The notes beneath the pieces are model-generated. The model did no database searches. It was not told the DNA's origin and saw nothing but the letters and a program-made list of their open reading frames with translations. Positions 19,629-63,835 of a DNA stretch of 64,000 nt are shown here, in pieces. Position numbers and translations under genes: made by a program. The DNA is from a virus (Duplodnaviria > Caudoviricetes): positions 20,210 through 84,209 of the IMG/VR virus record IMGVR_UViG_3300035208_003131. One strand, 5' to 3'. How positions within the stretch are numbered: the first letter of the stretch is position 1; every line of letters begins with the position of its first letter.

Positions 19629-21200
19629 TTAAGCATTAGGAAATTCATTTAATTCCTTTCCATCAACATCAGATTCAACTTCTTTACGTAGTGCGTCGTC
19701 ATCGGCATCCTCATCCTCAGTTGCATCTGATATCTCGGTAAATATATCGTCAATTTCACCGTCATCAGAAGTTGTGTCATCAATGAATTCATCGAACTCA
19801 CCTAGACCATCGAAATCTTTTTCCTTTTCACCACCCATTTCTTCAAAATCATCAAACATTTCATTATCCAACGCATCGCTTACGTCTTCATCGCCACGCA
19901 TACCTGGAAGTTCCGCTTGTAACCATGAATCAAATTGACCATCATCAAGTGAAAGTTTTTCTTCGATTCTATCAAGATCTTCTTCTTTCAATTCAATTGA
20001 ATCAAGTGAAGGATATACTTTCAAAAATTTGTCGATGATTTCTGAATTTGCATCATTTTTTATACCAGCACTTCCGTTAAGAATCTCATCAGATGTAAGT
20101 AGAACACCTTCACCGTCTTGCATTTTAGTTGCAACACTTGCAGCTACAAGTTTTTGCATTGAATCAAGTGATGAATTTAACCAATCACTTTTTTCTCTAA
20201 ATGCCATAAAGTTTACATCTTCTTCAGTTGTGAATTCATCGCCAGTGTCGTTAACACCTTTATCTCCACCTTCATCTCCACCACCGATACCACCGATACC
20301 ACCAGCACCACCAATATCATTAAATCCAGACATATCAACATCCGAACCAAAGTCCATGTCATCGCCTTCCATTGAGAAATCAGCTTCACCAAATTCTTCC
20401 GAGTTTACGTCAGCCGCATCACCACCAACATCACCACCAAGCTCATCAACACCTTCTTCAGCATCTTCTAAGCCAAGGTCCTCTTCATCGTCTGTAGCCT
20501 CTACAAGAGACATTAGAGCGGCCATACGCCTAACATCAACAGATTCACCAATTCCAGCACCAGCAACCCAGTTAGGAGACATATCTGTCATCCCACCGCT
20601 TTTATTACTGATATAGTATTCATCATCATAATCACCTAAACCCATAGCTTCTTTTGATTGAATCATCTCATCAACTTGAGTAAGGATTGAAGCACCGAAG
20701 TTACTAACATATGCTTCGTCTTCTAAAGACAATTCATAAATATTATCATCAACATCATCAACAGATAATTTTACAGTGATTTTATCATTAGCATTTGGAT
20801 ACATTAATTCAATATGTACAGATTCACCCGCACGTGTCATACCTAATTTGGCATGAGTCTTATCAAGAACAAGACTTCCAAGATCTAAACGGAACGCATT
20901 TGGTTGACTATTTTCAAGGATAGCAGATTCAGCAAGTAATTTCGTACTGATATCTTTCATATCACTTTGTTGTGGCTTCCAAGTACTTTCAAATTTGATT
21001 GTAGAACCTGGATTAGCTAAACTTGTATTCAAGTTTTTACGAGAGTCATCAAGCAATTGACCCTTTCCATCCGGAGTAGGCATAAAATTACCAATTTTCT
21101 TAAGAAAATCGGTTTTCTCAAATGCGTGATTATTTTTAGGGCCATTGTCAATCTTTTGATTTTGCAACGCACCTAATATATCATTTTTATTCATTTTCAT
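19629..21200 (-). CDS. Late, highly acidic protein (candidate prohead core/internal head protein)
   Basis: Very D/E/G-rich, with LAES, ILEN, IGES and LVEA motifs; late promoter at 21230-21238. Confidence 0.5.
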   Translation of the reverse strand: MKMNKNDILGALQNQKIDNGPKNNHAFEKTDFLKKIGNFMPTPDGKGQLLDDSRKNLNTSLANPGSTIKFESTWKPQQSDMKDISTKLLAESAILENSQPNAFRLDLGSLVLDKTHAKLGMTRAGESVHIELMYPNANDKITVKLSVDDVDDNIYELSLEDEAYVSNFGASILTQVDEMIQSKEAMGLGDYDDEYYISNKSGGMTDMSPNWVAGAGIGESVDVRRMAALMSLVEATDDEEDLGLEDAEEGVDELGGDVGGDAADVNSEEFGEADFSMEGDDMDFGSDVDMSGFNDIGGAGGIGGIGGGDEGGDKGVNDTGDEFTTEEDVNFMAFREKSDWLNSSLDSMQKLVAASVATKMQDGEGVLLTSDEILNGSAGIKNDANSEIIDKFLKVYPSLDSIELKEEDLDRIEEKLSLDDGQFDSWLQAELPGMRGDEDVSDALDNEMFDDFEEMGGEKEKDFDGLGEFDEFIDDTTSDDGEIDDIFTEISDATEDEDADDDALRKEVESDVDGKELNEFPNA

Positions 21201-22888: not shown

Positions 22889-23971
22889 TTAACTAAAGAT
22901 TGAACGAGGTAACATACTTTGCCACTTAGATGTAAAATATGATTGATCATTCATCATATCTTCATCATCTCTATGTCTAGTTACATTATCAAATTGCATG
23001 CATGATGATTTAATCTGAGCTGCAGCCAATCCACGAGACGCACATTGCATTGAAATATCAGCCATGTAATGATAAAACCCACCTACTATATTCTCAGACA
23101 TTTCAGTGAAATCCATTTGCATAAATGTTTCACCACGAACTGCAATAAATGGACCATGGACAATTAGAACTCGATTCTTTGGTTTAGTTTTAAATTCATG
23201 TCCAACGATAAAATCCCAATTGATATCATTGATTGCACCTTGAATATAACATCCACGAAAATTATGTACAGGAAATCCTTCAACATCATACCATCGTCCA
23301 GACGCACGAATTTCTTGGAATCCATATGAACCAGCAATATGAGTAGTTGGGTTAAGTTCTTCAAGTCGTGTGATTAAATTACGGTCATTTAACATCGACG
23401 AGTCATTACTAATAATGATCCACTTCGGTGCATTCGCTGGATTCTCACCACGAGCTGTTTTAATTTTTTCTTGAACTGTAATAAGGTGTTCAAATGCATT
23501 TTTCTTACTTGTATTTCCAAACCCAGGGATACCCATTAATATACGAGGACAAATATCGACACCATCTTTGTAAATTTCACTTCGATGTTGATTCATCACA
23601 ACATGAATAGCTCTATCACTTACAGCTTCAGCAAGGAATGCATGACTTCGTGTACTAAATTTACTTTGTTTACTTGATCTAATACCAAGTTCTTTTTTGG
23701 TTTTATTTATAGTCTTACGTTTCTTTGAAGCTTTCTTTTTCATCTTAGTGATTTTAACTTCTTTTACATCAGCAGCTTCTTCAATTGCTGCATCGAATGC
23801 ATCACCTATAACACCATCACCTTCAAAAAACTCACCATCACCTTCACCCTCGAAAGTATTACCCTCGATAAATTCAGGATTCATGTCTTTATTAGTTCGA
23901 TTGTTTAAAATTTCATCTGCTTGATTATCTATGTCAGCCATTGTTACCTCAAAAATATGGTCGGATTTCAT
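22889..23971 (-). CDS. Protein with a C-terminal StrF/Glyco_tranf_2_5-like GT-A domain
   Basis: WIIISND...IAGSYG...VLIVHGPFIAVR...GFYHYMADISMQ...G parallels this family (l.fvHqD, GvaG, vDg.ll, gfhfYd.d.c). The canonical acidic residues are partly replaced. Confidence 0.5.
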   Translation of the reverse strand: MKSDHIFEVTMADIDNQADEILNNRTNKDMNPEFIEGNTFEGEGDGEFFEGDGVIGDAFDAAIEEAADVKEVKITKMKKKASKKRKTINKTKKELGIRSSKQSKFSTRSHAFLAEAVSDRAIHVVMNQHRSEIYKDGVDICPRILMGIPGFGNTSKKNAFEHLITVQEKIKTARGENPANAPKWIIISNDSSMLNDRNLITRLEELNPTTHIAGSYGFQEIRASGRWYDVEGFPVHNFRGCYIQGAINDINWDFIVGHEFKTKPKNRVLIVHGPFIAVRGETFMQMDFTEMSENIVGGFYHYMADISMQCASRGLAAAQIKSSCMQFDNVTRHRDDEDMMNDQSYFTSKWQSMLPRSIFS

Positions 23972-25184
23972 CCGTTCGTTTACTTTGGATTCTCATCTGC
24001 TCATAACGTTTTTTAAGCTTTTGCTTACGTTTCTTTTCACGATTACCATGAATAAGAGTGAGTAGTATTGATGCACCTTCTGATACCATAATATACTTTT
24101 TTAAATCGTCTGATATAATAAAACCATTATTATCCAATCTAAATTTATTTGTATACATGACAGCATCATTCATATCTTTGATTTTACGTTCTTTCATCAC
24201 ACCATTTTCATCGGTGTAATATTGATATTGAGATAATGGAGTAATATCTCTCCAGTCAAACCACTTAAACCCAAGATCAACAGTTTTCGGAATCTCATCG
24301 TATCCAGCTTCATCATTATCCCATATCACAGTACCATTATGAGCATGTTCAGCAATATGTGGAAATTGGTTTAAAAATGACATTAAATGCTTTGTTCCAC
24401 CAAACGCAACTGAATTACGAACAAATGTAGAATCAATAGAACCTTCAAATAAAAAAAATGGTTCATTTACATTTAAAAAATCTCCGTTATATAATTCTCT
24501 ATCAGCACCTTCAAGGTTTCGATAACGAAGAAATGATTTTTCATTTAAATCACGAGCATCAAATTGAACCCAATCACCACCATATCTATAATATGGAATA
24601 ATTAAACGATTACCATATTCATTTCCAATTGGAATACCTTTATCATTATATATATAATTTCCATCGGGTCCTCTTACTATAAACTTAGAATCCTTAAGGC
24701 ATACATACCAGTGACTATAAATTGATTTAGGTATCTTACGACTAATACAATAATTAAGAGCTATTTTAGCAGTTGGGTGGGCATCAGTAATTCCAATCAA
24801 TTCACCTTTTTGGAATTTATATATATTAGTACCTTTAAACGTTGCTTCTTGTTTTGGAATTACTTTTTTAGTTTTTTTCTTCCAATCACTTCGATCAAAT
24901 GCATGAAATAATACATTTCGATAAACATCATTATGTCGCTCTTTAAGGAATTTAAAAAAACTCATTGACCCACATTCATTATGACAATGATATATCCAAT
25001 TACTATCTTTAAACAAAACGTAACCACGTTTAATATGTGGATTCTTTTTTGAATCACCACAAATTGGACATCTGAAATTATATGGAGTTGTACCGGTACC
25101 ACCACTTAAATTACAATCACCAAGTGTTTCCTTTACTGCGTCATGTAAAACGTAGTCAGGTATTTGTTCAAAATTAAACGCCAT
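23949..25184 (-). CDS. gp61: DNA primase (T4 gp61)
   Basis: Zn ribbon CPICGDS...HCHNECG; TOPRIM motifs LFEGSID, WDNDEAG and KDMND. Confidence 0.93.
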   Translation of the reverse strand: MAFNFEQIPDYVLHDAVKETLGDCNLSGGTGTTPYNFRCPICGDSKKNPHIKRGYVLFKDSNWIYHCHNECGSMSFFKFLKERHNDVYRNVLFHAFDRSDWKKKTKKVIPKQEATFKGTNIYKFQKGELIGITDAHPTAKIALNYCISRKIPKSIYSHWYVCLKDSKFIVRGPDGNYIYNDKGIPIGNEYGNRLIIPYYRYGGDWVQFDARDLNEKSFLRYRNLEGADRELYNGDFLNVNEPFFLFEGSIDSTFVRNSVAFGGTKHLMSFLNQFPHIAEHAHNGTVIWDNDEAGYDEIPKTVDLGFKWFDWRDITPLSQYQYYTDENGVMKERKIKDMNDAVMYTNKFRLDNNGFIISDDLKKYIMVSEGASILLTLIHGNREKKRKQKLKKRYEQMRIQSKRTDEIRPYF

Positions 25185-25469: not shown

Positions 25470-26543
25470 TTAGAACGGTAAATCATCATCAGCACTATCT
25501 GAAATCTCAGGTGCTGATTCAGTCACAGGTGTAAAATCAGTAGGAGCTGATACACTTGTATCATCACTATTCATATCAAACATATCATCAGACTTCTCAG
25601 TCACCGCAGTGTTTCCACCTTCAGTGCCTTCGAAATATAATGATGCATCACCAGTTGAAACATTTTTCGCTGGAGCCGCAGTATTACCTGGAGCCGCACT
25701 GCGATTAGCTTGAACATCATTTGCAAGAGCGTTACGTTCTTTAGCTTCAACTAGAGCTACAAACTCATTATATTGATTCATTAATTCCTCAGATGTAGGC
25801 ACATCACGATATTCACTAAGATCATGACATTGTTCAAGTACAGCCATTATATCTTCAGACGTTCCAGCTATATCACTTAAACCATCTTCATCCCAATACG
25901 AATTATCGTATGTTGGCATATCATTTGATGGATTACGTTCAACAATAACAAAACGATCACGTCCATTGCGAGGACTATATGGAACAAATTTTTCTTTTGC
26001 TTTTTTAAATTTAGGTTTATCTTCACCGGGTTTAGACTCATCATCACGAAGAGGATCCATTAAAGTACTATTGATATGATCAGTGTGATCCCATTTTAAT
26101 ACTTTACCATCATTAACAGGTTTAGTCAAATCTTCACGAACAAGAATATTAATTACATGTCGAGTTGATGGAAGTCTACTCTTACCAAGATCCATTAAAA
26201 CTTTGTTGTTTTTATCTTTTCCCGCATTATAAATAGCCCATGCTGCTTCGCATATAGGACAAGCTTCATCAATAGTCTTACGACACGGTACGTTTTTATA
26301 AATTTTATTTACAGGATCTTTAAGATAATGCATCATATATGATACAGATGCTGGGAGTTTATTTTTAACTCCGTTTAAACCCTGTGGTAGTAAACGAATC
26401 TTAGCTTCATATTCTTTTACATCTCTTCCAATTGTTGGTTTCCATAATGTAGGGTCTATTTGTTTACCGTTTCCAGAATCAGCGTTCTGTGCCTCGATAG
26501 CGGCAGCTTGATCAGTATCGATCGTTAAAAAATCTTCAGACAT
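25470..26543 (-). CDS. gp32: Single-stranded DNA-binding protein (T4 gp32)
   Basis: LWKPT...AKIRLLP, Zn site CRKTIDEACPICE, INILVREDL, YDNSYW and an acidic tail ending DDDLPF. Confidence 0.93.
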   Translation of the reverse strand: MSEDFLTIDTDQAAAIEAQNADSGNGKQIDPTLWKPTIGRDVKEYEAKIRLLPQGLNGVKNKLPASVSYMMHYLKDPVNKIYKNVPCRKTIDEACPICEAAWAIYNAGKDKNNKVLMDLGKSRLPSTRHVINILVREDLTKPVNDGKVLKWDHTDHINSTLMDPLRDDESKPGEDKPKFKKAKEKFVPYSPRNGRDRFVIVERNPSNDMPTYDNSYWDEDGLSDIAGTSEDIMAVLEQCHDLSEYRDVPTSEELMNQYNEFVALVEAKERNALANDVQANRSAAPGNTAAPAKNVSTGDASLYFEGTEGGNTAVTEKSDDMFDMNSDDTSVSAPTDFTPVTESAPEISDSADDDLPF

Positions 26544-27657: not shown

Positions 27658-29246
27658 TAGAATGGACTCCCAGTCTCTTGTGGAGACTGTGTTTGCAACG
27701 GTGGGTTTTTGTTACCGTTTTCATTACTATCTAATATAGTTTCTTGTACAGGTAAAATTTCAACTTCCGTTATTTTTTCAGTTTTTAGATCTTTATTTTT
27801 TAACTCGTTCATTTTTTCCACCTGTGCTTCAATCTCTTCTCTACTCTTTGAAGGAGCTTTAATCGAACCACGTAAATCACTTGTACGAGAGGTAAATGAA
27901 TCCGCATTACCATCTTGTGATATCTGCATTTCACTATATTGTTTAATATCATTATTAGACGCACTACGAACACGCATATGTGAATAATCACACTTAGACA
28001 TACTATTTATCATATTTGGACCAAAACGATTCTTAAGAATCATATGATAAAATAAATGATGTTCTTTTAATAGTGGATCTTGTGTAATAGTAATCATTAA
28101 ATCAGCTGTATCATTTAATCCAGCACTACCAGCAACATTTTCCATCGAAGCTTCTTTACTACCATAACCATCACGATTTAATTGTGATGCAGTTACAACA
28201 GCGATTTCACGAGCCTTTGCCATATCACGTAGTTGTTCGGCAATCTCTTTACCCATTGTATATAGAGTATGACTGCCTATTCCATTCGCACGTTTAGCAG
28301 GTTTCATAATACCAATATAATCAACTACTAACATATCAATATCAAATCCTTTAGTGCGTTTTATTTCAATAATTTCATTTTCGATATCAACAACAGTTGC
28401 AGTGGTAGGTAATGCTTTAACAACTAGATTACCGACATCATGTACATCCTTATCGGGTACAGTGGTTAATAATCGTTTTAAATCAGCCCCATTTGAAACA
28501 CGAACTTCATTCATTGGTACATCAGTAATATTTGACGTAATACGTTCCCATATTAATTCTTCGGCCATTTCTAACGTAATATACATAACATTGTATCCAC
28601 GTTGAAATGCAAATGCAGCTTCATTACATAACACAATAGATTTACCAACGTTAGGCATACCCATAAAAATGGTTAACGCTTTCCTATAATGACCACCATA
28701 TCCAGTTCCATTCGATGTAAATGCACGAATATCTTCTAATGCTGATGGTATTGCTCTCATAGATTCATTTAATCGCCTCAATGCTTCATCCGTGTCAGCA
28801 ACTACATCTAACGCACCATCAATATGTAAACTAAAATTAACCGCATTTTGCAATCCTTTGATTAATGTGTTAATGTTTGTAAAATCTCGTTCATGTATGG
28901 CCTCAGCAGCATCTGTTAAAATATTTGTTGTTTGTTGTACTTGAAAAAATGTTTCAATTTGATCGATAACGTAACTGTTTTCCATCGGTTGTATATCACG
29001 ATTACATATGTTAATCAATTTAGTTCGCTGAGTACAAGCAGGTAACGCAGTGACCAATTCTTGAGCACTGGGGTATCGATTATACTTCTTATGGTATCGT
29101 AAAATCCACTCACATATTTTTTTATTAGCAGGATCTTTAAAAACATCCTCCGAGAAATGTGGTGCGATTCGATGTTGTAAAGTAGTATCTTCGAAAAATT
29201 TACGTATTACTAAATCTTCATTAGATATGTCATAGACTTTTTGCAT
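27657..29246 (-). CDS. gp41: Replicative DnaB-like helicase (T4 gp41)
   Basis: GMPNVGKS, YITLEMAE, VVDYIGIM, TASQLNR and LKNRFG. Start moved to 29246 (GGAGA SD). Confidence 0.95.
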   Translation of the reverse strand: MQKVYDISNEDLVIRKFFEDTTLQHRIAPHFSEDVFKDPANKKICEWILRYHKKYNRYPSAQELVTALPACTQRTKLINICNRDIQPMENSYVIDQIETFFQVQQTTNILTDAAEAIHERDFTNINTLIKGLQNAVNFSLHIDGALDVVADTDEALRRLNESMRAIPSALEDIRAFTSNGTGYGGHYRKALTIFMGMPNVGKSIVLCNEAAFAFQRGYNVMYITLEMAEELIWERITSNITDVPMNEVRVSNGADLKRLLTTVPDKDVHDVGNLVVKALPTTATVVDIENEIIEIKRTKGFDIDMLVVDYIGIMKPAKRANGIGSHTLYTMGKEIAEQLRDMAKAREIAVVTASQLNRDGYGSKEASMENVAGSAGLNDTADLMITITQDPLLKEHHLFYHMILKNRFGPNMINSMSKCDYSHMRVRSASNNDIKQYSEMQISQDGNADSFTSRTSDLRGSIKAPSKSREEIEAQVEKMNELKNKDLKTEKITEVEILPVQETILDSNENGNKNPPLQTQSPQETGSPF

Positions 29247-29338: not shown

Positions 29339-30577
29339 TTAATCATTCATGTCAAACTCATCCATTTTACCAGCTTTCACAGCTTTACTTACGACGGTCT
29401 CAGCATCTTCAAGGTTTTCACTATCGATATCAATACCTTGTTCTTCTTCATCGTCATATTTAAAATCAATTGGTTTCACAAGTTGTAATTTATTTTTAAT
29501 ATATTCATTGATCTCATCAAAAACAGTTCCAATGGTAGATTCCATATGAATATCTTTTTCTTTACAAACAATCCATTCAGATTCAGGTTTTTTTGGATCT
29601 TTAATTACATAAAAATTTGCACCGCCAGTTTTTTCAGGACCGACAACACCTTTTTTATCAAATTTAGCAGCCGACCACTTTTCAAGTAATTTAGCTTCCA
29701 CAGCCCATTCATGCATTCCATACCATTTATTTAGACCACGCTCCCAATTCAAATAAATCTGAGCCTTCTGACCATCAATACAGAATCTACTTTTAACATT
29801 TTTAGCGGTGATGATAGTACCTTTACGGATCGTACCTTCTTTATACTGCTTTTTAGTCATATGTAGAATTACAGATGATGCATATAACCCACCACTACCA
29901 CCAGCAACGGTCGTAGGATCACCGTAGCCGCCAATATTAGCATATACATGATTAGTGATAAGCATTGGAATATCAAGCGTTCCTAGACGCACTAGAACCG
30001 ATTTATAAAAGCTCTTCAATTGTTTTTGAGCAGTCATATCGTTAACATAATTACTGTTCTGAATATCAGTTCTACTCTTCAATGTATCAAGCATACCTTG
30101 TGAATCGATTACAAATGCACACTTATTTGGGTTCTCAGCCTTTCTTCCCATAGCATCTTCAAGTTGCTCTAGAATTTGGTCGAAGTTACCTTTCAGTTTT
30201 TCAACAACAGATTGACTAATAAGTTTAAATGATCCTTCAGGTAATCCAAAATTAATTAGATCAGAATCACATAGTGAGTTTTCAGTGTCAATGTAATAGA
30301 TAAAATAACCCTTCTCAACGAGTGGACGTGCAAATGCAAACATAGCGAAAAAAGTTTTACCTACCGCTTGTTCTCCTGCAAACATAAATGCTCTATTACT
30401 TGGGAATCCTTTTGTCATGTCGCCCGACATGATTGCGTTCAATGTATATGAACCAGTATCGATCCAATCTTTAACTTCACGCTTGCGACCGCTATCAGCC
30501 ATTTTGTCTCCAGTCTTCACAGAACTGAAAAAACTAAAATCAGGTGCGGTATTCGTTTTCTTCTTTTTTGGTGGCAT
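29339..30577 (-). CDS. uvsX: RecA-like recombinase (T4 UvsX)
   Basis: WIDTGSYTLNAIMSG, GEQAVGKT, VIDSQGML, ITNHVY and GGSGGLYASS. Confidence 0.95.
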   Translation of the reverse strand: MPPKKKKTNTAPDFSFFSSVKTGDKMADSGRKREVKDWIDTGSYTLNAIMSGDMTKGFPSNRAFMFAGEQAVGKTFFAMFAFARPLVEKGYFIYYIDTENSLCDSDLINFGLPEGSFKLISQSVVEKLKGNFDQILEQLEDAMGRKAENPNKCAFVIDSQGMLDTLKSRTDIQNSNYVNDMTAQKQLKSFYKSVLVRLGTLDIPMLITNHVYANIGGYGDPTTVAGGSGGLYASSVILHMTKKQYKEGTIRKGTIITAKNVKSRFCIDGQKAQIYLNWERGLNKWYGMHEWAVEAKLLEKWSAAKFDKKGVVGPEKTGGANFYVIKDPKKPESEWIVCKEKDIHMESTIGTVFDEINEYIKNKLQLVKPIDFKYDDEEEQGIDIDSENLEDAETVVSKAVKAGKMDEFDMND

Positions 30578-38872: not shown

Positions 38873-39883
38873 TCAATTACCACAATTCCATTCAAGTTCT
38901 CTAAGTTTTTCATATAATTCAATCTCGGCATCGCTTGCATCAGTTGGAACTAACACGGTAAACGTAATAAATAATGAACCATCTTTAATACCATGCTTTT
39001 TTAATTTGAGTTTAGCCGTTGATTTAGTTCCTTTTGGTATTACCGCTTTAATAATTTTACCAAAAACATTAATTTTAATATCAGCACCAAGAACTAAATC
39101 CGAAGGTGATACATCAAACGACATATAAATATCATTACCTTTACGAATAAATTTTGAATCTTCGATAACCTCAATGTAAGCTAGAATATCGCCATTTGCA
39201 CCACCATTACGACCAGCATTACCAGAACCAATAACTTTAATTAAATTACCATCTTCAACACCTGATGGTATTTTTACAGTAATATGTTTAGTTTCAGATA
39301 AAATTGTTTCACCTTTACATAAAGTACATGGTGTCTCGATTACTAATCCAGTTCCACCACAATTATTACAAATATCAACTTGAATTGAATTATCATCTTC
39401 TATTGATGTAGCTTTATGTACCTTCCGAACAACACCTTTACCTTTACATATTGTACACTGTTTTTGTTTACTAGCTCCAGTACCATCACATAATGAACAC
39501 CGTTTTTTACGATTAACTTCTATTACTTTATCAATACCAGTAATAGAAGATTCAAATGTAATAGTAAAATTTACTCTAATATCTTGGCCTTTAATCGGAA
39601 CTTTACGATTTGTTTTTTTATGAAAACTAGCCGCAGTATTACATGTACCAAATGCCTCACCCCAGCGTTTAAAATCATTACTAAATGACATTTTATTATC
39701 ATAGACTTTTTTCTTACCAGCATCACTAAGTATAGAATATGCTTCATTCACTTCTTTGAATATAGATTCAGAATTTGGATTTTTATCAGGATGATATTTA
39801 ACCGCTAATTTTTTATATGCACTTTTTATTTCAGATGTAGATGCGGACCGACTAACACCGAGTGTACTATAATGATCTTTCAT
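38873..39883 (-). CDS. dnaJ: DnaJ (class A-like) co-chaperone
   Basis: J-domain with HPD, four CxxCxGxG-type Zn repeats and C-terminal beta-domains (GNAGRNGGANGD). Confidence 0.93.
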   Translation of the reverse strand: MKDHYSTLGVSRSASTSEIKSAYKKLAVKYHPDKNPNSESIFKEVNEAYSILSDAGKKKVYDNKMSFSNDFKRWGEAFGTCNTAASFHKKTNRKVPIKGQDIRVNFTITFESSITGIDKVIEVNRKKRCSLCDGTGASKQKQCTICKGKGVVRKVHKATSIEDDNSIQVDICNNCGGTGLVIETPCTLCKGETILSETKHITVKIPSGVEDGNLIKVIGSGNAGRNGGANGDILAYIEVIEDSKFIRKGNDIYMSFDVSPSDLVLGADIKINVFGKIIKAVIPKGTKSTAKLKLKKHGIKDGSLFITFTVLVPTDASDAEIELYEKLRELEWNCGN

Positions 39884-40402: not shown

Positions 40403-41281
40403 TTATTGTAATTTACGAAAACGCTTACCAACACTACCACCTTCTTGTTCAGTGTAAGTACGCCCAAAAATTGCACCAGTCTTAACAAACCCACGAAATC
40501 CATCAGCCTCGGCTTTATCAGACCATAGATCCCAGTTATCAATTACATTGTCATGGTAATGATATAACCACATTTTAGCTTTAATTTCGTCAGGAAGTTC
40601 ACGTAAACGTTCATAACTTGCATGAACGTTAGAAGGAAATAAACTAGTTTCACAATCATGAAAAATTACATCACATTCTTTTAAATAAGCAGTCATTGCA
40701 TTCACAGGACAAAATTGAGTATCAGTTGTAATATAAATGCGTTCGTTGGTATCAGGATCAGTCCACATCAATCCGTATGAATTCTCAATTTTATATCGAG
40801 CTGATACATGCACAGTCTGTACCATATCAAATTTAATACCTTCCCAAATGAAATGTCCATTTTCCTGCACTGGATTTACATCAAAATATGTATGTAATTG
40901 AGCATCTTCAGTTTCAAGTCCACGAAGCCCACCCTGAAGACTATCACTCCATAGATCACGAGCAAGTCCAGAAGCAAACGATTGATTATCATCTTGTATA
41001 ATATATTGACCTTGAATGAACATTTTAGGTCTTGGAATGGTTGGATTAAAAAAAGTACAAAATGCAAGAGCTTCAAGTCCACCAACATGATCAGCATGAA
41101 TATGACTAATATAAACAGCATCAATATCAACTTCACTTAATCCCATCTCTTCATTTAAAGCCAATGGTGCAAAACTACCACAATCAATCATTAACCATTT
41201 TTTGTTTTGTCTAATTAAAAAATTAGATTGCCAATTCTTTTTTGTAAAAGCATTTCCACTCCCAAGCGTATACAATTCCAT
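40403..41281 (-). CDS. MBL-fold metallohydrolase, Apyc1-like cyclic-nucleotide phosphodiesterase candidate
   Basis: LGSGNAF, IDCG, SHIHADHVGGLE, LWSDSLQGGL, IFHDC, VHA and MWLYHY: the pattern of the Apyc1-related family. Confidence 0.7.
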   Translation of the reverse strand: MELYTLGSGNAFTKKNWQSNFLIRQNKKWLMIDCGSFAPLALNEEMGLSEVDIDAVYISHIHADHVGGLEALAFCTFFNPTIPRPKMFIQGQYIIQDDNQSFASGLARDLWSDSLQGGLRGLETEDAQLHTYFDVNPVQENGHFIWEGIKFDMVQTVHVSARYKIENSYGLMWTDPDTNERIYITTDTQFCPVNAMTAYLKECDVIFHDCETSLFPSNVHASYERLRELPDEIKAKMWLYHYHDNVIDNWDLWSDKAEADGFRGFVKTGAIFGRTYTEQEGGSVGKRFRKLQ

Positions 41282-42454: not shown

Positions 42455-42898
42455 ATGATAGAACATTTTTCATCCGATTTAACTCGTTGGTTAAGTAATT
42501 TTTACCCATGTGATATCACATTTGAAGGTAAAACTTATACATCCATCGAACATGCTTACATGTCTGCAAAATCACTCGATCCAAATTGGAAACAATTCTG
42601 TATTGAAACTGAAGATCCAAGAGCGGTAAAAAAACGTTCTCGTGAAATCAAACTAATACCTGAATGGGAAAACATAAAAGTAGATGTTATGAGAGAGTGT
42701 GTAACTCAGAAATTCTCAAAAGAACCATTCCGTAGTAAATTATTAGATACAAAAAATGAATACATTCAAGAAGGTAACTGGTGGAACGACCGATTCTGGG
42801 GAGTTGATTTAAAATCAAATCCACCAGTCGGTAAAAATATGTTAGGTATTCTAATTATGGAAGTTAGATCTAATTTAATTACGGATGAAATATTATAA
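42455..42898 (+). CDS. NADAR family (YbiA-like) N-glycosidase / ADP-ribose eraser
   Basis: LSNFYPC, YTSIEHAYMSAK, QKF, LLDT, EGNWWNDRFWG and GKNMLGILIMEVR. Confidence 0.93.
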   Translation: MIEHFSSDLTRWLSNFYPCDITFEGKTYTSIEHAYMSAKSLDPNWKQFCIETEDPRAVKKRSREIKLIPEWENIKVDVMRECVTQKFSKEPFRSKLLDTKNEYIQEGNWWNDRFWGVDLKSNPPVGKNMLGILIMEVRSNLITDEIL

Positions 42899-43269: not shown

Positions 43270-43524
43270 TTATAAATCTAATGAATTTATAGTATATCCT
43301 TTCGATTTATAAACATCTAAATCACCATTAACCGATTCTTCAGATGCCCAATAGTAACCATAGCAGTTTTCCATTATAGTTCCACTATCAAGTTTAAATA
43401 CAGGTACTTCAATTTCGATACCTAAATCATCATTTTCTACTAATTTATTTTCTTGGAATTCACCGAAGCCAATAAGTGTAACCACTTTATCTTCGACTGA
43501 TTTAATTACGCCTATACGTTTCAT
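43270..43524 (-). CDS. Hypothetical protein (84 aa)
   Basis: GAGG SD upstream; no motif recognised. Confidence 0.6.
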   Translation of the reverse strand: MKRIGVIKSVEDKVVTLIGFGEFQENKLVENDDLGIEIEVPVFKLDSGTIMENCYGYYWASEESVNGDLDVYKSKGYTINSLDL

Positions 43525-43579: not shown

Positions 43580-44998
43580 TTAATATGCAACACCAGTAAT
43601 TACACCGTTTTCATCAAGGATTTGGTCAAATAAAAATGCAATATCATCAACTTGGTCTTCAGCTACAATCACAGAATCATGTACGGTACAATACGGGACG
43701 TTAAATTCAGTATCAATTCGTGGACATACTTTATTAAAAATCAACTCAGCTTCATTACGTTGTAGTGTATGAGATAATGCTTTATAATCCCCATGTTTAA
43801 GATGATTCATAAGATTAGTTATAACAGGAAATTCAATTTGCCATAATCTATCCATTTTTGTAACTGCTTTACCTTTACCTTGTCCAAACACATATGTAAT
43901 CCACTGTTTCTTAATATATGAACGAGATTTATTTTCTTGATTAATTATATCCCATTTTTCTTGAAAATATTCATATATACCTTCACTACGTAAAATATGA
44001 TTAAACTGCTTCAACTCAATACGTGCTTTAGTAATAATTGTTTCAAGTGTTTCATTTTTAATATACGGAATTGAATCATTTAAATGACCATCATAGATAT
44101 GACCACCAGTATAATTATTACGATTATTTACATATTTATTTCTAACATCCACACGTGGTTGAGATGTATTCATATCCAATAATTCAAACATAGTTTTATG
44201 TGAATGATTCTCTAAATTATCAACATAATTATCCATTAACGTATACAACATAGACGCTTGTGAAGATACAATATCAACACCAATTGCTTTTTTACCATTA
44301 ACATATAAAAAATTCTCACGAATATGTTTTGACAAGTTAGTAAAATTTGTATGGACTCGATTATAACTATCTTTTGATATGAAAATAGCTAAATCCGATT
44401 CATCTTTAGAATTAATGCGTTTACATTTATCTATTTCAATATCCATTTTTGTTTGACTTAAAACACCAGTATCAACTAAATTTTGCATATAAATTTTAGC
44501 ACTATCAATATCAATACTAAAATTTTTCAACATATCATATAACTTACCAAGCATCTCATCATTAACATTATTACCAAGAAATTCCTTTTTCCATTGAAGT
44601 ATTTTACGAAGAATAGTTTTTTTAGTAATTGAATGATCAATTAATTTACATTTTTTATATTTTTTTGTTAATGCATAACATTTACATTTTCCTTCATTTT
44701 CTGGTGAAGAAACAATATAATGGTTATCAGTTTCAAGATAACCATTATCAATTAAATACTCTAAATAGCGTTTGTAATGTTTACCAAGTTCTTTTCGCAA
44801 TATTTTTGAATAAAGCGGAATTTTATTCAGCTTCTCATATTTCCTATTATACATTGGAATTTGAATTATTTTACTTATAATATATAAAAATCCATCAATA
44901 CTATAAGGAAATGATGGTGGTTTTATATTAATCATAATTAATATTTCACTTTTCAATTTTTCAGGTATTTTTATTATAACTTGATTATTATTATTCAT
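43580..44998 (-). CDS. Minimal family-A-like polymerase (TV-Pol/PolA-palm-related)
   Basis: NRVHTNFTNL (RxxT motif), GVDIVSSQ (motif A Asp), KKQWITYVFG (motif B-like), LQRNEA and CTVHDSVIV (motif C). No exonuclease domain recognised. Confidence 0.6.
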   Translation of the reverse strand: MNNNNQVIIKIPEKLKSEILIMINIKPPSFPYSIDGFLYIISKIIQIPMYNRKYEKLNKIPLYSKILRKELGKHYKRYLEYLIDNGYLETDNHYIVSSPENEGKCKCYALTKKYKKCKLIDHSITKKTILRKILQWKKEFLGNNVNDEMLGKLYDMLKNFSIDIDSAKIYMQNLVDTGVLSQTKMDIEIDKCKRINSKDESDLAIFISKDSYNRVHTNFTNLSKHIRENFLYVNGKKAIGVDIVSSQASMLYTLMDNYVDNLENHSHKTMFELLDMNTSQPRVDVRNKYVNNRNNYTGGHIYDGHLNDSIPYIKNETLETIITKARIELKQFNHILRSEGIYEYFQEKWDIINQENKSRSYIKKQWITYVFGQGKGKAVTKMDRLWQIEFPVITNLMNHLKHGDYKALSHTLQRNEAELIFNKVCPRIDTEFNVPYCTVHDSVIVAEDQVDDIAFLFDQILDENGVITGVAY

Positions 44999-45023
44999 TA
45001 ATTCCAAATATACATATTTATTG

Positions 45024-45128
45024 TATAATCAGTAAAATATTTTATTTGATAAAAACGATTTGATCAAATTTGATTAGATTGAAGAAGGGGGGGCATGGGG
45101 ATTACCCCCATTTATGTTTTCCCTTTTT
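45024..45128 (+). other. Structured element at the major strand switch (origin or small-RNA candidate)
   Basis: TATAAT at 45024-45029, four TTTGAT hexamers including the palindrome ATTTGATCAAAT (45058-45069), and a G-rich 41-nt hairpin at 45085-45125 ending in a T-run. Confidence 0.45.
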
Positions 45129-45141
45129 GAAATACGAAATG

Positions 45142-45189: not shown

Positions 45190-46164
45190 ATGAAGAAGAC
45201 AACATTAATTGCATATATGGAAGCTCAAAAAACAAAGACTCATACAGATGAGTTTGTATCTGCTATATTTGAAAGTAGACCGGATATAATGCAATTGGAT
45301 GCAGCAACACGTGGTGATCCTAGTGCGATGTATGATATTTCAGATAGGAAGCGTAATGTCAAAAAGAATGAAGAAATGCAAAGGTCTAACTCAGACGAAG
45401 AAGTCGAGGAAGATGAAATCGGCGATATCGAAAGCGATAACGGGGACGGTATCAGGAATGACGAAGACACGGAAATTGAAGAAAGCGAGTCGATAGAAAA
45501 CGATGAGCCGGAGGATGGGTCGGAAGAAGAGGAAAAGAAACCAACCAGTCAGTTAGATATTATTGACAATTCCGGATATAAGCAAGTTGCATTTAATGAA
45601 GCGTTCAATAATATGACTGAAAAAATGTATCCGCAAATTTCTGATATTTTTACAGAAGAAGCAGTTGGATTGATTCAAGAAGGTATTGATTCGGACTGGA
45701 TACCTGTTGAGCGTAGATTATTAATGTGTAACGAAGAAGATTATAAGTCAAGTAAAGAAAAAATGCGATGTTATAATTCATCGAATCCACGTGGTATGGG
45801 AAAAACTAATATTTTTAAACGACAATACCTTGATAAATATTATAAAGCTACTTATTCAGGTAAATTAGAAGCTGCTAGGGGTAAATTTATTATATTTGAG
45901 CGAAAGGATATAAATGAATCAATTGAAATAATGGATATATCACCAAAATTAAATGGGGTTACGTTTGCAATAAATAGTAAATTGAGTTCGGAAGCTGATG
46001 ATTATCTTATGAAAGGTAGTAAATTACATGTTGATTTTATATTTAGAGAAAGTATTATAGAAACCGATGAAGAGTTTGATCCAGCAAATACTAGAGATGT
46101 GTCAAAAAATTTTAATTCGGAATCGTTAGAAGCCGAAGAAAGGGAAACCCAAAGTAATGATTAA
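45190..46164 (+). CDS. Late acidic hypothetical protein (candidate internal head protein)
   Basis: IFES, INES and FRES motifs with a D/E-rich linker. The start is probably at 45190 (or 45166), downstream of the late motif, not 45070. Confidence 0.55.
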   Translation: MKKTTLIAYMEAQKTKTHTDEFVSAIFESRPDIMQLDAATRGDPSAMYDISDRKRNVKKNEEMQRSNSDEEVEEDEIGDIESDNGDGIRNDEDTEIEESESIENDEPEDGSEEEEKKPTSQLDIIDNSGYKQVAFNEAFNNMTEKMYPQISDIFTEEAVGLIQEGIDSDWIPVERRLLMCNEEDYKSSKEKMRCYNSSNPRGMGKTNIFKRQYLDKYYKATYSGKLEAARGKFIIFERKDINESIEIMDISPKLNGVTFAINSKLSSEADDYLMKGSKLHVDFIFRESIIETDEEFDPANTRDVSKNFNSESLEAEERETQSND

Positions 46165-47221
46165 TATTAAAAGGCTCACTGAAAATCTTACAGAGATGAA
46201 AGAGAATGCGTTACTTGAAGATACCTTTAGAAGTTTAAAAGATCAGGTTGATAATGGACGAAAACGTAGTGTAACTAATGCCAAATTTGTAGGTATTGAT
46301 CAAGCTAAAGATGGAGCTGCACGTACTCATTGGAAAGTTCCTAGTGAAAGTAAACCAGGTAAATCATATGATGTAGTTGTTGAAATAGTTATACCTGAAA
46401 AAGGTGGGTTATTTGCGGTTGCTGCTAGTCCATGGAATTTAAAAGCTCATGCACAGACTTTAGCTAAAGCTGATGTTAGAGTTCATTGTTCATGTCCAGA
46501 TTTCTATTGGTCTGGTATGAAATATAATTTAGGTCCGAATGGACCACATAAAGGTTCACTTGCACATGACCAAAAATCGGATGTATCTGAAGAGACATAT
46601 CCAATCAAACCACCAGATATTCGAGATCCTAATCGTGAGAATGTAATGTGTAAGCATTTAAGTAAAGTATGGCGATCGTTTACAACTAGTGGTACAACTA
46701 TAATGAGTCAAGCTCGTAAATATTCAAAAGAAAATGAAATTATTCCGGTTGATTCGACAGTTACTCGTGATAGTGATGATGGTAAAGCTATACTCAATAA
46801 AGATGTTGAGGGTGTATCTGTAACCGAGGGAGATGCTCGACATATTACTGATTCGTTATTTACTAGTATGAAAAATTTTGTAATAGACAAGGTATCGGGT
46901 TTGAAGAAATTATGGAGAAATAAAAAGGATGTAGTTGATACAACCGATGATGAGTTTAATGATCAAGGTGTGGATGAATTTATTGATGAAGAAAATCAAG
47001 ATATTGAGTCAATTGAAGATGAAATTGAAGAGGTTAAAGATCAAGGTGCTGAGGATATCATTGATGAGACAAACGATACTATTGATGTAGATGGGTCTGA
47101 TATTAAAGCTGATGCAATTCTTTCCGAACATGAAAATGAATCTGAAAATGAACCTGAATCTAGTGAAACACTTGATGAGTTAGATAATGAATATTCAGCA
47201 AAGGACATTTTATCACGGTAA
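46157..47221 (+). CDS. SWIM zinc-finger protein with an acidic tail
   Basis: VHCSCPDF...VMCKHL is the CxC...CxH SWIM signature; the N-terminus carries LTEN/LLED motifs. Confidence 0.7.
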   Translation: MINIKRLTENLTEMKENALLEDTFRSLKDQVDNGRKRSVTNAKFVGIDQAKDGAARTHWKVPSESKPGKSYDVVVEIVIPEKGGLFAVAASPWNLKAHAQTLAKADVRVHCSCPDFYWSGMKYNLGPNGPHKGSLAHDQKSDVSEETYPIKPPDIRDPNRENVMCKHLSKVWRSFTTSGTTIMSQARKYSKENEIIPVDSTVTRDSDDGKAILNKDVEGVSVTEGDARHITDSLFTSMKNFVIDKVSGLKKLWRNKKDVVDTTDDEFNDQGVDEFIDEENQDIESIEDEIEEVKDQGAEDIIDETNDTIDVDGSDIKADAILSEHENESENEPESSETLDELDNEYSAKDILSR

Positions 47222-47270: not shown

Positions 47271-49049
47271 ATGAATATAAACACGATAAGTAATAAATTA
47301 GAACTTACATTTGATATGCATAATCATAGAGATGCACTGATTAAAATTTCTGCACCTTCTCAGGCTGATATAAATAGTATTAATGGTATTCTATATGCGA
47401 GTTTTTCTTATATGAATGAGAAAAAACGATTTAGTTGGGAATTTGAAGAAGGGTGGGATGATGGTATTGATTATGTTTATAATAAAGCATGTCAGACTCT
47501 CCCATTAGGTCTTATACCGAGGGCGGTTAAATATTTAAAAGAAAGTCGTCCGAATTTAAAAATCAATGTAAGTAATTCGATCAGAAAGATTTATTCGAAT
47601 CCAAATGGTGATATTACGATTGATCAAGTTAAAACATATGCTAATTCGTTAAACATTTATAATCGAATTGAAAATGTAAAGATTACTCCATATGAACACC
47701 AATTACGTTTAGTGCAACAATCATTAAATCGCAGACGAGTATCACTACTTGCGTGTACATCTGCTGGTAAGTCATTATCGATGTATATCAATGTACGGTA
47801 TCTAACTGAGGTTGAACGTAAACAAGTATTGGTAGTTGTGCCATCTACAAATCTGGTTAAACAATTGTTTACTGATTTTCAAGATGATTATGGTTGGGAA
47901 AAAGCTAGAGATAGTTGTACGTTAATCTATGGTCAATCTGAGGACAAACTTACAACCAAACAAAAAGCAGCATTGAAAGAATTGAATCTTGGTGAAGAAG
48001 CAATTTTAAAACCAATTACAATTTCAACATGGCAGAGTCTTCAAAATAAACCACCTGAATTTTTTGATGTATTTGAAGCTGTTATGGTGGATGAGGCTCA
48101 TGGCACTCGTGGTGCGGTTCTTCGTGATATACTTGGATTATGTAAAAACTCTACTGAATTTAAAATTGGATTATCTGGTACATTACCTGATGATGGGTTA
48201 GATGCTGCATGGATTGAAGGTGCATTAGGACAGAAGATTGTAATTGTTCGATTAAAAGAATTAATTGCACTTGGAATTCTTACTCCGGTTGAAATACATA
48301 CAATCAAAGTTCCGTATGAAGAAAAAATACGACCTTATATATGTAAACAAAATTATCAATCAGAATATTCATTACTTACAAATAATGATAGTCGTAAGCG
48401 TGTAATGGATTTACTAATCAAAGCAAAAAAAATTACAACTGATGAAAATACGGTAATGTTGTATAAAAATAAGGGTACTCTGGATGAGATGTATGAATAT
48501 ATGAAAGAAGCTCATCCACAGTTTAAATATCATATTATTAAAGGTGAGATTGATGTAAATGAACGTGAGCGTATTCGTAAAGAGATGGAAAATGGCGGTG
48601 GTAACATTATCATCGCTACTTATGGTACAATGAAACAAGGTGTAAATATTAAATTATTACATAATCTTGTATTTGCTGAATTTTCTAAATCAATGTATGA
48701 GGTTGTACAGTCAATTGGTCGTATAGTACGACCACATAAAGATAAGAAGTTAGCCCGTGTGTTTGATATTGTTGATGATGCGTCATATACAACTAAACCA
48801 CGTAAAGGTGGATTTGGTAAGAGTAAACTTAATTATGGAATGAAACATTATGAAACACGTAAGTTTTATTACGCTGATGATGATATACCTGTAATTGAAT
48901 TAGATTTAACTGGGATTTACGAAGCTACCATAAATGTAGCTGACGTTGAAAAGAAAAAAGAAGCCGCTAAAAAACGAGCGGCTGCTAAAAAATCTAAAAA
49001 GAAATCTACTATTAAAGGTAAAGGGTCCAGGTCTAAATTTCTTAACTAA
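47271..49049 (+). CDS. uvsW: SF2 DNA helicase (T4 UvsW)
   Basis: YEHQ, ACTSAGKS, VVPSTNLV, TWQSL, MVDEAH, GLSGT and QSIGR. Confidence 0.93.
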   Translation: MNINTISNKLELTFDMHNHRDALIKISAPSQADINSINGILYASFSYMNEKKRFSWEFEEGWDDGIDYVYNKACQTLPLGLIPRAVKYLKESRPNLKINVSNSIRKIYSNPNGDITIDQVKTYANSLNIYNRIENVKITPYEHQLRLVQQSLNRRRVSLLACTSAGKSLSMYINVRYLTEVERKQVLVVVPSTNLVKQLFTDFQDDYGWEKARDSCTLIYGQSEDKLTTKQKAALKELNLGEEAILKPITISTWQSLQNKPPEFFDVFEAVMVDEAHGTRGAVLRDILGLCKNSTEFKIGLSGTLPDDGLDAAWIEGALGQKIVIVRLKELIALGILTPVEIHTIKVPYEEKIRPYICKQNYQSEYSLLTNNDSRKRVMDLLIKAKKITTDENTVMLYKNKGTLDEMYEYMKEAHPQFKYHIIKGEIDVNERERIRKEMENGGGNIIIATYGTMKQGVNIKLLHNLVFAEFSKSMYEVVQSIGRIVRPHKDKKLARVFDIVDDASYTTKPRKGGFGKSKLNYGMKHYETRKFYYADDDIPVIELDLTGIYEATINVADVEKKKEAAKKRAAAKKSKKKSTIKGKGSRSKFLN

Positions 49050-62737: not shown

Positions 62738-63835
62738 ATGAAATTATATCACGGTAGTGGAAAAAAATTTGAAAATTTCTCTAATGAGTATGTGAATACT
62801 GGGGAAGAAGTCCAGAAGTATGGTTATGGTATCTATCTCACTAATAGTATTGAGATAGCAAAATATTATGCTGATCGAGCCGCTGGTGTGGGTTATGTAT
62901 ATGCGGTTCAAATACCTAACTCATTAAATGTAGTTGATTGGAATGAAAGTATTGATACATATACTGTATCTGAGATGGCTAAACAGCTCATAGGAGCGGA
63001 AGTTTTTGATGCTGAAATTGATGAGATGGGAGAACATAGAACATTCTTTTTTCAAGACGATAAATTTGAAGAAATAATTGAAACTATTCTTGTTGATGGT
63101 GCTAATATAGAAGCATGGGAAAATTTACAAGAAGAGGTGGAAGATTATGATTTAAGTAATTTTAAATCTCTTATCAATAAATCTGCATTTGAGTTTTATC
63201 TTGATGATGGTATATCATATGAGACTGTTTATGATTTTATTTCAAGTACTCTTGGTGGAGTTACTGCAAGTAAGTTAATGATTAAGAATGGTGTTGATGG
63301 ATTTAAGTTTAATGCAACTGAAGTTAATGGTGGAATTAATTATACAATATTTAATTCAAGTAATATTAAGATTATTAATATGCAATTAGAAAATGATGTC
63401 GGGTTGAATGAGAGTGTTATTCAGTTGAAGGGATTTATTAAATCGCATTTACGTGATGATAATAAGAGTTTAGTTGAAAGTATAATGAAAGGATATGTTA
63501 GTATATTCGAATCTGTTCGTGATGGATTATATTATCATGTAAGTAATGATAAATTTACTAATTTTAATGATTCTGATGGTGGTATTTGGTTTACGTTAAA
63601 TAAAGCAAGTGCTATTAATGGTGAGGTTGGTGCTAGTGGTAATTCTGTATTATATACGGTAAAGTTAAATGTACATAATTTAGCTGGTTGGGATGAATAT
63701 GATAATATGGATTTTTATGAACTAAAACATGCTGGGTTTGACGGGGTTAAATTAGATGATGACCTTGTTGTATTTGATGATAGTCAAATTAATATTATAT
63801 CAGTAGATGAAATTAAAGGGTATAAGGATATATAA
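62738..63835 (+). CDS. Tandem ADP-ribosyltransferase-like (ART-PolyVal-type) two-domain protein
   Basis: Domain 1: LYHGS...YGYGIYLT..IAKYYA...GVDG...YTIFNSSNIKII. Domain 2: YYHVS..F..F...GGIWFT...LYTVKL...GFDGV...VVFDDSQINII. The linker contains the shared helical module. Confidence 0.7.
   Translation: MKLYHGSGKKFENFSNEYVNTGEEVQKYGYGIYLTNSIEIAKYYADRAAGVGYVYAVQIPNSLNVVDWNESIDTYTVSEMAKQLIGAEVFDAEIDEMGEHRTFFFQDDKFEEIIETILVDGANIEAWENLQEEVEDYDLSNFKSLINKSAFEFYLDDGISYETVYDFISSTLGGVTASKLMIKNGVDGFKFNATEVNGGINYTIFNSSNIKIINMQLENDVGLNESVIQLKGFIKSHLRDDNKSLVESIMKGYVSIFESVRDGLYYHVSNDKFTNFNDSDGGIWFTLNKASAINGEVGASGNSVLYTVKLNVHNLAGWDEYDNMDFYELKHAGFDGVKLDDDLVVFDDSQINIISVDEIKGYKDI

Follow-up and report, generated by a model that had tools for sequence, protein, structure and literature searches.

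The 64,000-nt window analyzed here (positions 20,210 to 84,209 of the virus record IMGVR_UViG_3300035208_003131) carries a gene, P0001, at 43580–44998 on the minus strand, and its 472-residue product is very probably an active nucleotidyltransferase of the family-A type with a predicted DNA-binding head. The favored interpretation, which is given a probability of about 0.45, is that P0001 is of the TV-Pol/CCPol kind and serves as an origin-specific initiator or primer synthase, not as a second replicase. The source record, a viral contig of 84 kb in IMG/VR, is estimated to be 20% complete, and the full phage is therefore probably near 400 kb.

The P0001 reading frame starts at an ATG and ends with a stop codon at 43580–43582; an alternative TTG start lies three codons 5′ of the ATG and would give a protein of 475 residues. 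An earlier note on this DNA had described the open reading frame (ORF) as a minimal family-A-like polymerase from the order of five short strings, and all five were located in P0001: RVHTNFTNL (residues 214–222), GVDIVSSQ (240–247), KKQWITYVFG (363–372), LQRNEA (412–417), and TVHDS (438–442). The strings are not chance matches, as key residues in them are invariant across the 40 family members of alignment A1, in which identity falls to 24%. The invariant columns of this alignment are D210, R214, H216, N218, T220, R227, D242, Q247, Y342, K363, F371, K401, Q413, E416, T438, H440, and D441. Searches with the sequence of P0001 gave only a sub-threshold CoiA_C match in Pfam and no match in PHROGs, and a PDB sequence search returned no match for either the single P0001 sequence or the 40-sequence family profile. 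PF00476 (DNA_pol_A) did not match P0001 at E values up to 10, and hence the protein lies under the gathering threshold of this family; the same model was absent from the entire 84-kb contig at E up to 1. PF00940 (T7-like RNA polymerase) likewise had no Pfam match in P0001.

An AlphaFold2 model of P0001, built from the 40-sequence alignment, has a mean predicted local distance difference test (pLDDT) score of 90.1 and a predicted template modeling (pTM) score of 0.78. Foldseek comparison with the PDB revealed that the top 50 matches all belong to the family-A/single-subunit RNA polymerase (RNAP) class, and the top matches include the apicoplast polymerase, Taq, Klenow, Bst, T7 DNA polymerase (DNAP), Pol theta, and mitochondrial RNAP (mtRNAP). 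The VIA structure search, which is independent of Foldseek, aligned model residues 142–472 with Klenow (1d9d) over 248 residues at 3.4 Å with a Z score of 14.4, and further matches were Pol theta (13.8), T7 DNAP (13.4), yeast mtRNAP (12.8), T7 RNAP (10.6), and N4 RNAPII (8.7). Ranks 1–21 of this search are all PolA or single-subunit RNAP enzymes, and the next, unrelated matches fall to Z scores of 5–6. In the viral structure library BFVD, the model matched ~400-residue phage proteins (E 7e-20, template modeling scores of 0.6–0.7), and the top match is labelled ‘Putative DNA polymerase I’. The nearest cluster in the ESM Atlas, which is mostly labelled as Bacteroidota, carries the automatic name ‘putative DNA-directed DNA polymerase family A palm domain-containing protein’. 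The model thus supports a superfamily-A thumb/palm/fingers fold in which motifs A, B, and C are kept and an exonuclease is missing. The fold assignment is not new, since automatic database names already give ‘family A palm’ and ‘DNA polymerase I’; what is new here is the winged-helix head, the coexistence with PolB or PolA replisomes, and the single box per genome that accompanies the gene and lies at the skew minimum.

The palm proposed in the earlier note is further supported by profile comparison with A2, a set of the true PF00476 family made up of the exonuclease-less 426-residue PolA of megaphages. Alignment of A1 with this set by hhalign spans 163 columns with an E value of 0.0018. Motif B, which forms the O-helix (residues 359–372, 43883–43924, minus strand), reads R359-x3-K363-x7-F371-G372 and pairs with the R-x3-K-x7-Y-G of the PolA O-helix; K363 and F371 are invariant, so that the PolA Tyr is replaced by Phe in the P0001 family. 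The LQRNEA segment (412–417, 43748–43765, minus strand), with invariant Q413 and E416, pairs with IQSPAA and corresponds to the ‘IQSPAA / Q-G-x-A-A-D’ helix of PolA. Motif C, T-V-H440-D441-S (438–442, 43673–43687, minus strand), pairs with HIHDG and supplies the second catalytic Asp; T438, H440, and D441 are invariant. The alignment to PolA stopped short of motif A (residues 236–247, 44258–44293, minus strand), in which a strand formed by residues 236–243 ends in D242 and is followed by a helix at 246–266. Motif A was assigned because D242 is invariant, ends this strand before a helix, and has the same D+5 spacing to Q247 that separates the invariant D225 and E230 of the A2 set. Comparison of the family with the single sequences of T7 DNAP and T7 RNAP by hhalign was not significant, and the local match with T7 DNAP (513–536) falls on motif B.

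Enzymatic activity is likely retained in the family, and the argument for an active enzyme is drawn from the invariance of the catalytic set (D242, D441, H440, K363, F371, R214, and Q247) in 40 sequences. The invariant Q247 occupies the D+5 position, the place of the steric-gate Glu in PolA DNA polymerases. The corresponding residues are E710 and Y766 in Klenow and G542 and Y639 in T7 RNAP, where the Tyr reads the 2′-OH. By analogy with these enzymes, a preference for deoxynucleoside triphosphates (dNTPs) over ribonucleoside triphosphates is suggested by Q247 at the steric gate and by the replacement of the O-helix Tyr with F371.

The domain order of P0001 in the model is winged helix, thumb, R214 hairpin, D242 palm strand, reduced fingers with the O-helix, and H440-D441 palm strands. 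The N-terminal third had been described as basic and unrelated, and the lack of a recognizable exonuclease domain had also been pointed out. The basic character holds, as residues 1–157 have an isoelectric point (pI) of 9.5 and residues 201–472 one of 6.1; the term ‘unrelated’ does not, because this region consists of a conserved winged helix followed by the thumb. No exonuclease domain was found by Pfam, and the N-terminus of the model is the winged helix. The winged-helix domain (residues ~10–125, 44624–44971, minus strand) is basic with a pI of 9.45, features invariant S64, G72, and Y75, and is predicted to bind DNA. VIA matches of these residues are Fur (Z 6.3), LexA (5.3), TFIIE (5.2), the winged helix of ORC (5.0–5.2), TubR (4.9), and the MDR (plasmid) initiator (4.9). 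The helical thumb (residues ~127–200, 44399–44620, minus strand) contains helices at 127–145, 148–157, 164–176, and 182–199 and an invariant D163, and the VIA alignments to PolA enzymes start at model residues 142–147. A beta-hairpin follows (residues 207–217, 44348–44380, minus strand; model strands 207–209 and 215–217), which carries a GRvHTNfT motif with D210, R214, and H216 and precedes an I-R227-E-N-F segment. The fingers contain an insertion (residues ~268–320, 44039–44197, minus strand; alignment A1 columns 401–450) with a conserved D-x-R-x-K-Y-V-N. This insertion is found in the ~470-residue forms and is missing from the ~400-residue and the 510–565-residue relatives, and most distant matches align in two stretches that jump over it.

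P0001 on the minus strand and the plus-strand genes that start at 45139 are transcribed divergently, at the strand switch noted earlier, and are separated by an intergenic region of 140 nt (44999–45138). This region features a conserved box, AAGGGAAAACATAAATGGGG, at 45106–45125 on the minus strand, which is the strand of the gene; its AACAT core is located 120 nt 5′ of the ATG. Neither the window nor the entire 84-kb contig contains a second copy of the box. A position weight matrix (PWM) built on the AACAT core and run on both strands of each ~13-kb locus found its best match upstream of the gene, on the gene's own strand, in nearly all relatives of 470–565 residues. Relative to the gene, the position of the box is about −93 to −120 for the closest group and the type represented by locus L007; in others it is −170 to −530, often with two tandem copies. 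In the closest group it is a 22-nt island with an identity of 0.86–1.0 within DNA that is ~0.5 identical, and the proteins of this group are 44–64% identical. The layout of the box is an A-run, a specific octamer, ATA(A/T)A, and G, and the sequence 3′ of it diverges fast. Searches of the box regions with Rfam, including the sequence after the box, found no family. The box was also considered as a general promoter, and this was rejected, as there is one perfect site in 64 kb and in 84 kb, looser patterns occur at chance level, and the box variant is single-copy in genomes of 419 and 422 kb.

The earlier note had suggested that an adjacent structured element could be the origin or template of the polymerase and had raised the question of whether homologues are flanked by a hairpin as well. 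Compared with shuffled sequence, the 140-nt gap does fold better (z −5.2), and it contains a G/C-rich stem at 45082–45128 (plus strand). The hairpin was rejected as a conserved feature, since relatives retain the box without the G/C-rich stem. The element thereby gains real support as a putative site of action through the conserved single-copy box inside it, at the GC-skew minimum, and not through its hairpin. Other short sequences are found between the box and the gene, including TTTGAT repeats at 45044–45079 with the palindrome ATTTGATCAAAT, and relatives carry their own, different short repeats in this position, such as CTATTCTGA, which occurs twice in locus L003. The string TATATTTG is located at 45005–45012 (minus strand), 6 nt before the P0001 ATG, and is also present in L003. 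It fits TAnnTTTG, the Bacteroidota −7 promoter consensus, and it hints at a Bacteroidota host and a near-leaderless mRNA. Judging from this string, the polymerase-like gene probably has a host-type promoter of its own.

Two complete genomes of 419 and 422 kb (G006 and G007) each contain one copy of a variant of the box, which lies at 49% of their length. These two genomes are independent assemblies with the same ends; IMG/VR calls direct terminal repeats for both, though a search of the G007 ends found no repeat of at least 100 nt. The box of the 422-kb genome, at 207,644, coincides with the minimum of the cumulative GC skew (205–211 kb) and with a genome-wide flip of gene strand from minus to plus. 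In the window, the cumulative GC-skew minimum is located at ~43.8–45 kb, within ~1 kb of the intergenic region, and the box, the skew minimum, and the strand flip coincide here as well.

P0001 belongs to a large family. A word-indexed search found 70 relatives, none of which has a Pfam domain, and a full profile search extended the family to 7,470 representatives of clusters at 50% identity (E ≤ 1e-3), 1,420 of them with E ≤ 1e-30. The relatives are mostly encoded on phage contigs of 100–700 kb. In IMG/VR at least 176 loci carry the family, many of them on contigs of 100–600 kb, and the annotated phage records with the family are all unannotated ‘uncultured phage’ genomes of 595–735 kb. The family is also present in genomes and metagenome-assembled genomes of Bacteroidota and Planctomycetota. 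In the isolate Draconibacterium orientale the neighbors of the family gene are mobile-element-like and include a restriction–modification methylase, AAA_24, and DUF3871.

Gene neighborhoods were compared across 80 IMG/VR loci, which fall into three groups by protein length. In the group of ~470 residues (the window and L001–L006), the gene is divergent from a gene for an acidic protein of ~300 residues, a ~350-residue C-x-C...C-x-H gene, and a UvsW-like helicase, and the group of 510–565 residues (L007–L042) has the same divergent neighbors. In the group of ~400 residues (L043–L080), the gene is flanked by ~440-residue and ~180-residue genes of no assigned function. Together with these relatives, the ~440-residue gene upstream (27 loci) and the ~180-residue gene downstream (28 loci) make up a tight co-directional trio, and neither partner matches Pfam or PHROG. 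No partner gene is universal among the 80 loci, and the most widely co-located replication or recombination neighbor is the UvsW-like helicase, which is found in 30–37 of them. In the window, this superfamily 2 (SF2) DNA helicase is encoded at 47271–49049 (plus strand) in the divergent arm, which also encodes a RuvC-like protein, FEN/RNase H, and an SbcC/gp46-like ATPase.

The window additionally encodes a T4-type replisome, which the earlier note had correctly described as intact. Its components are all on the minus strand and include a family-B polymerase (PolB) with an exonuclease (13312–16170), a DNA primase (23952–25184; phrog_47, E 9e-35), a gp32-like protein (25473–26543), a DnaB-like helicase (27660–29246), and a UvsX/RecA-like protein (29342–30577). 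Five genomes of 420–600 kb that carry the family gene and are 97–100% complete each encode a conventional polymerase, which is PolB in four and PolA in one, and the minimal enzyme is therefore not the replicase. At locus L059 the gene for the winged-helix minimal polymerase is directly upstream of a true PolA gene, and in genome G010 it is near one; the two are therefore distinct proteins. The true PolA of these megaphages (~570–600 kb) is a stand-alone, exonuclease-less PF00476 polymerase of 426 residues, encoded at 7080–8357 (plus strand) of L059, with a match at 252280–252861 (minus strand) of G010. In three further genomes of 465–600 kb (G009, G011, and G012, behind loci L053, L058, and L046), PolB matches lie in separate, distant ORFs of ~370–530 residues, a pattern that suggests split or multiple PolB genes.

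Taken as an initiator, P0001 would act in three steps. The winged helix would dock the enzyme on the single box ~100 nt upstream of its own gene, where the arms of the genome diverge. The polymerase core would then make a first short strand at the box, starting de novo or at a nick or R-loop, and the phage replisome (PolB, DnaB-like helicase, primase, and gp32) would take over and extend it. We infer box binding by P0001, priming, the choice of sugar, and the identity of the site as an origin from the features described above. The primary origin of T7 consists of two tandem RNAP promoters (phi1.1A/1.1B) just after RNAP gene 1, and the T4 origin oriF, which adjoins uvsY/uvsW, is turned off by UvsW. 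Both origins are echoed here by the tandem boxes and the UvsW-like neighbor. Precedents for a priming family-A enzyme have also been published: TV-Pols are predicted to be prim-pols (PMC2579912), and CCPol, a family-A enzyme, is together with MP a proven DNA primase with a preferred start site beside its own operon (PMC7581432). A more specific form of the initiator reading is offered tentatively, as it is the less probable of the two. It holds that P0001 may be a sequence-directed origin primer synthase whose winged helix would recognize a promoter-like box of 22 nt, present once in each 400-kb genome, and whose core would begin a DNA or mixed strand there de novo. The box would then be the single bidirectional origin of a jumbo/megaphage lineage, and the enzyme would be a living intermediate between Pol I-type and promoter-dependent T7-type polymerases.

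Several observations weigh against an initiator. The phage already encodes a DnaG-type primase, and the primer-terminus segment of PolA (T-G-R-L-S-S...P-N-L-Q-N-I-P) has no clear counterpart in the P0001 family. The ~400-residue group (L043–L080) has no PWM match to the box and is located in a different operon. GC skew follows the coding strand in these phages; the skew minimum therefore shows where the master divergence point lies and does not independently prove an origin. Alternatively, one of the two divergent genes could use the box as an operator or promoter element; the opposite strand of the box holds TATGTTT, which resembles a Bacteroidota −7 element.

The alternative that survives best, though an unlikely one, is that P0001 is a dedicated single-subunit RNAP for expression, similar to N4 RNAPII or T7 RNAP, whose winged helix would read the box as a promoter and which would transcribe its own arm or a short RNA. 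This would account for the good structural scores of enzymes that initiate de novo (yeast mtRNAP, T7 RNAP, and N4 RNAPII), for a motif C that is H-D-S as in T7 RNAP and not H-D-E, and for the promoter-like layout of the box with its fast 3′ divergence and tandem copies. It would also fit the result that no PF00940 RNAP was found in five large relatives, a search whose control was uninformative. Against it, a transcription programme would need more than one box per 420-kb genome, and the best structural matches are DNA polymerases. The active site also differs, as the Glu-sized Q247 takes the steric-gate place of a Gly in T7 RNAP and the Tyr that senses the 2′-OH is replaced by F371. The −7-like TATATTTG just before the ATG points to a separate promoter for the gene, and the sequence after the box belongs to no Rfam family.

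Somewhat less probable again is a repair, gap-filling, or translesion polymerase of the Pol I/theta/nu type, which would lack proofreading and serve recombination-dependent replication, with the box as a regulatory site of the divergent promoters. The nearest folds (Klenow, Pol theta, and Pol nu), the missing exonuclease, and the divergent arm with its UvsW-like helicase, RuvC-like protein, FEN/RNase H, and SbcC/gp46-like ATPase are all consistent with such a role. The fused DNA-binding domain is, however, of a type predicted to be sequence-specific, a unique 22-nt box accompanies the gene across large evolutionary distances, and the fingers and thumb are strongly reduced. The weakest alternative, a polymerase of a selfish TV-Pol-type mobile element residing in large phage genomes, with the box as the end or origin of the element, is improbable: mobile elements are indeed defined by TV-Pols, and a phage harbors one such element (PMC2579912), bacterial relatives of P0001 sit in mobile-element-like settings, and a 66-residue Gp23-like fragment abuts the gene in ~400-residue relatives, but the gene is single-copy, its synteny with helicase, GT2, and SWIM-like genes is kept among relatives at 26–64% identity, neither flanking repeats nor a nearby integrase, resolvase, or D5-like helicase were found, and a position at the genome-wide skew minimum is not expected of a random insertion.

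The Gp23-like fragments are ORFs of 56–67 residues that correspond to an internal piece of the capsid protein (PF07068, E 1e-5; phrog_138) and lie directly upstream of ~400-residue relatives in 10 loci, for example at 5562–5759 (plus strand) of L043. A location of these relatives inside a split capsid gene or intron was considered and rejected, as intact, full-length Gp23 is encoded elsewhere on the same contigs; in L043, the intact gene is ~9 kb from the fragment.

Directly downstream of P0001 and co-directional with it is an ORF of 84 residues (43270–43524, minus strand), which is kept solely in the four closest loci. Its model (pLDDT 93.7) features a five-stranded SH3/Tudor-like beta-barrel and a helix, and the best structural match has a Z score of 5.0, which is background level. 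An assignment as a single-stranded DNA-binding protein with an oligonucleotide/oligosaccharide-binding fold was rejected, because the model is an SH3/Tudor-like barrel with background-level matches only. The barrel protein is a possible candidate for a partner of the polymerase.

Further genes in the window complete the surroundings of P0001. A 354-residue protein encoded at 46157–47221 (plus strand) has a C-S-C-P...C-K-H pattern, which is SWIM-like by eye, and an acidic tail; it matches neither Pfam nor PHROG, and its gene is co-located with the polymerase-like gene in 21–23 of the 80 loci. Two genes downstream of P0001 is a NADAR-domain protein (42455–42895, plus strand; PF08719, E 2e-22), and an ART-PolyVal ADP-ribosyltransferase-like protein is encoded at the window end (62738–63832, plus strand); the two proteins point to ADP-ribosylation biology. 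An Apyc1-like anti-Pycsar protein of 292 residues with a metallo-beta-lactamase fold is encoded at 40406–41281 (minus strand; PF23023, E 4e-30, above the cut-off) and is likely a cyclic-nucleotide-degrading counter-defense protein. The Apyc1-like gene is kept in L001–L003 and L005. A full-length DnaJ with a J domain, a CXXCXGXG zinc center, and a C-terminal domain is encoded at 38876–39883 (minus strand).

If P0001 is an initiator polymerase with a single recognition box, the start of replication in giant T4-like phages of 400–700 kb would become directly testable, and origins in uncultured phage genomes could be located from sequence alone. P0001 would then be a second, independent priming family-A enzyme after CCPol-MP, with its DNA-targeting module in cis. 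The family is without a curated Pfam or PHROG model, and its annotation would cover many ‘hypothetical proteins’ (7,470 representatives). A small, site-directed, exonuclease-free polymerase could also serve as a tool.

Several known types of superfamily-A enzymes resemble P0001 in part. P0001 shares the thumb, palm, and fingers and the order of motifs A (D...Q/E), B (R-x3-K-x7-F/Y-G), and C (H-D) with canonical PF00476 PolA, including the exonuclease-less 426-residue PolA of megaphages. It differs from these enzymes in falling below any Pfam threshold, in its much reduced fingers and thumb, and in its winged-helix head. The T7-like single-subunit RNAPs belong to the same fold class (Z 10.6 for T7 RNAP and 12.8 for mtRNAP). 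In T7 RNAP an added N-terminal domain recognizes a duplex site of ~20 bp and the enzyme starts de novo, as is proposed for P0001, and tandem sites lie beside the polymerase gene, those of T7 serving as a replication origin. P0001 is about half the size of the T7-like RNAPs and lacks a PF00940 match, its family has Gln at the steric gate and Phe in place of Tyr639, and there are one or two sites per genome in contrast to a promoter set.

CCPol-MP of SCCmec (Bebel et al. 2020, PMC7581432; Rice 2022, bioRxiv 10.1101/2022.12.02.518924) also features an exonuclease-less family-A enzyme, and CCPol serves an element that relies on other polymerases for bulk synthesis. CCPol makes primers de novo from dNTPs (PMC7581432). 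In CCPol-MP a small beta-barrel protein is encoded beside the polymerase; for P0001 its putative counterpart would be the 84-residue SH3-like barrel, which is confined to the four closest loci. CCPol is recognizable as PolA by sequence, whereas P0001 has no PF00476 match even at E 10. Additionally, CCPol binds DNA in trans via MP and P0001 has a winged helix fused in cis, and its operon contains no Cch2/D5-type helicase.

A further resemblance in architecture is to the TV-Pols described by Iyer, Abhiman and Aravind (2008, PMC2579912), which have a nuclease-free minimal superfamily-A core in proteins of ~400–600 residues. Their structural synapomorphies are a bi-helical thumb, a beta-hairpin with an invariant Arg, two catalytic Asp residues, and helix-turn-helix fingers with R-x3-K (PMC2579912). 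All four are found in P0001, as thumb helices 164–176 and 182–199, the hairpin at 207–217 with R214, D242 with D441, and R359-x3-K363, and a nuclease is missing. Some TV-Pols also have an extra N-terminal domain, they occur in viruses and mobile elements that keep normal replication enzymes, and the bacterial relatives of P0001 are in Bacteroidota and Planctomycetota, as for many TV-Pols. Microcystis phage Ma-LMM01 carries a TV-Pol (PMC2579912), and the P0001 family profile found no match in this phage at E up to 10. Classical TV-Pols are linked to a D5-like helicase, resolvase, integrase, or transposase, and none of these was found among the window neighbors of P0001 (GT2, NADAR, Apyc1-like, etc.) or in the clustering of the 80 loci; its neighbors are the UvsW-like SF2 helicase and T4-type genes. 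The TV-PolN domain is described as all-helical, and the winged helix at the N-terminus of P0001 is set apart from it by that description. Finally, unlike the classical TV-Pols, the P0001 gene has a fixed position, kept in synteny, where the strand switches in 400-kb phages, and is accompanied there by a dedicated conserved box.

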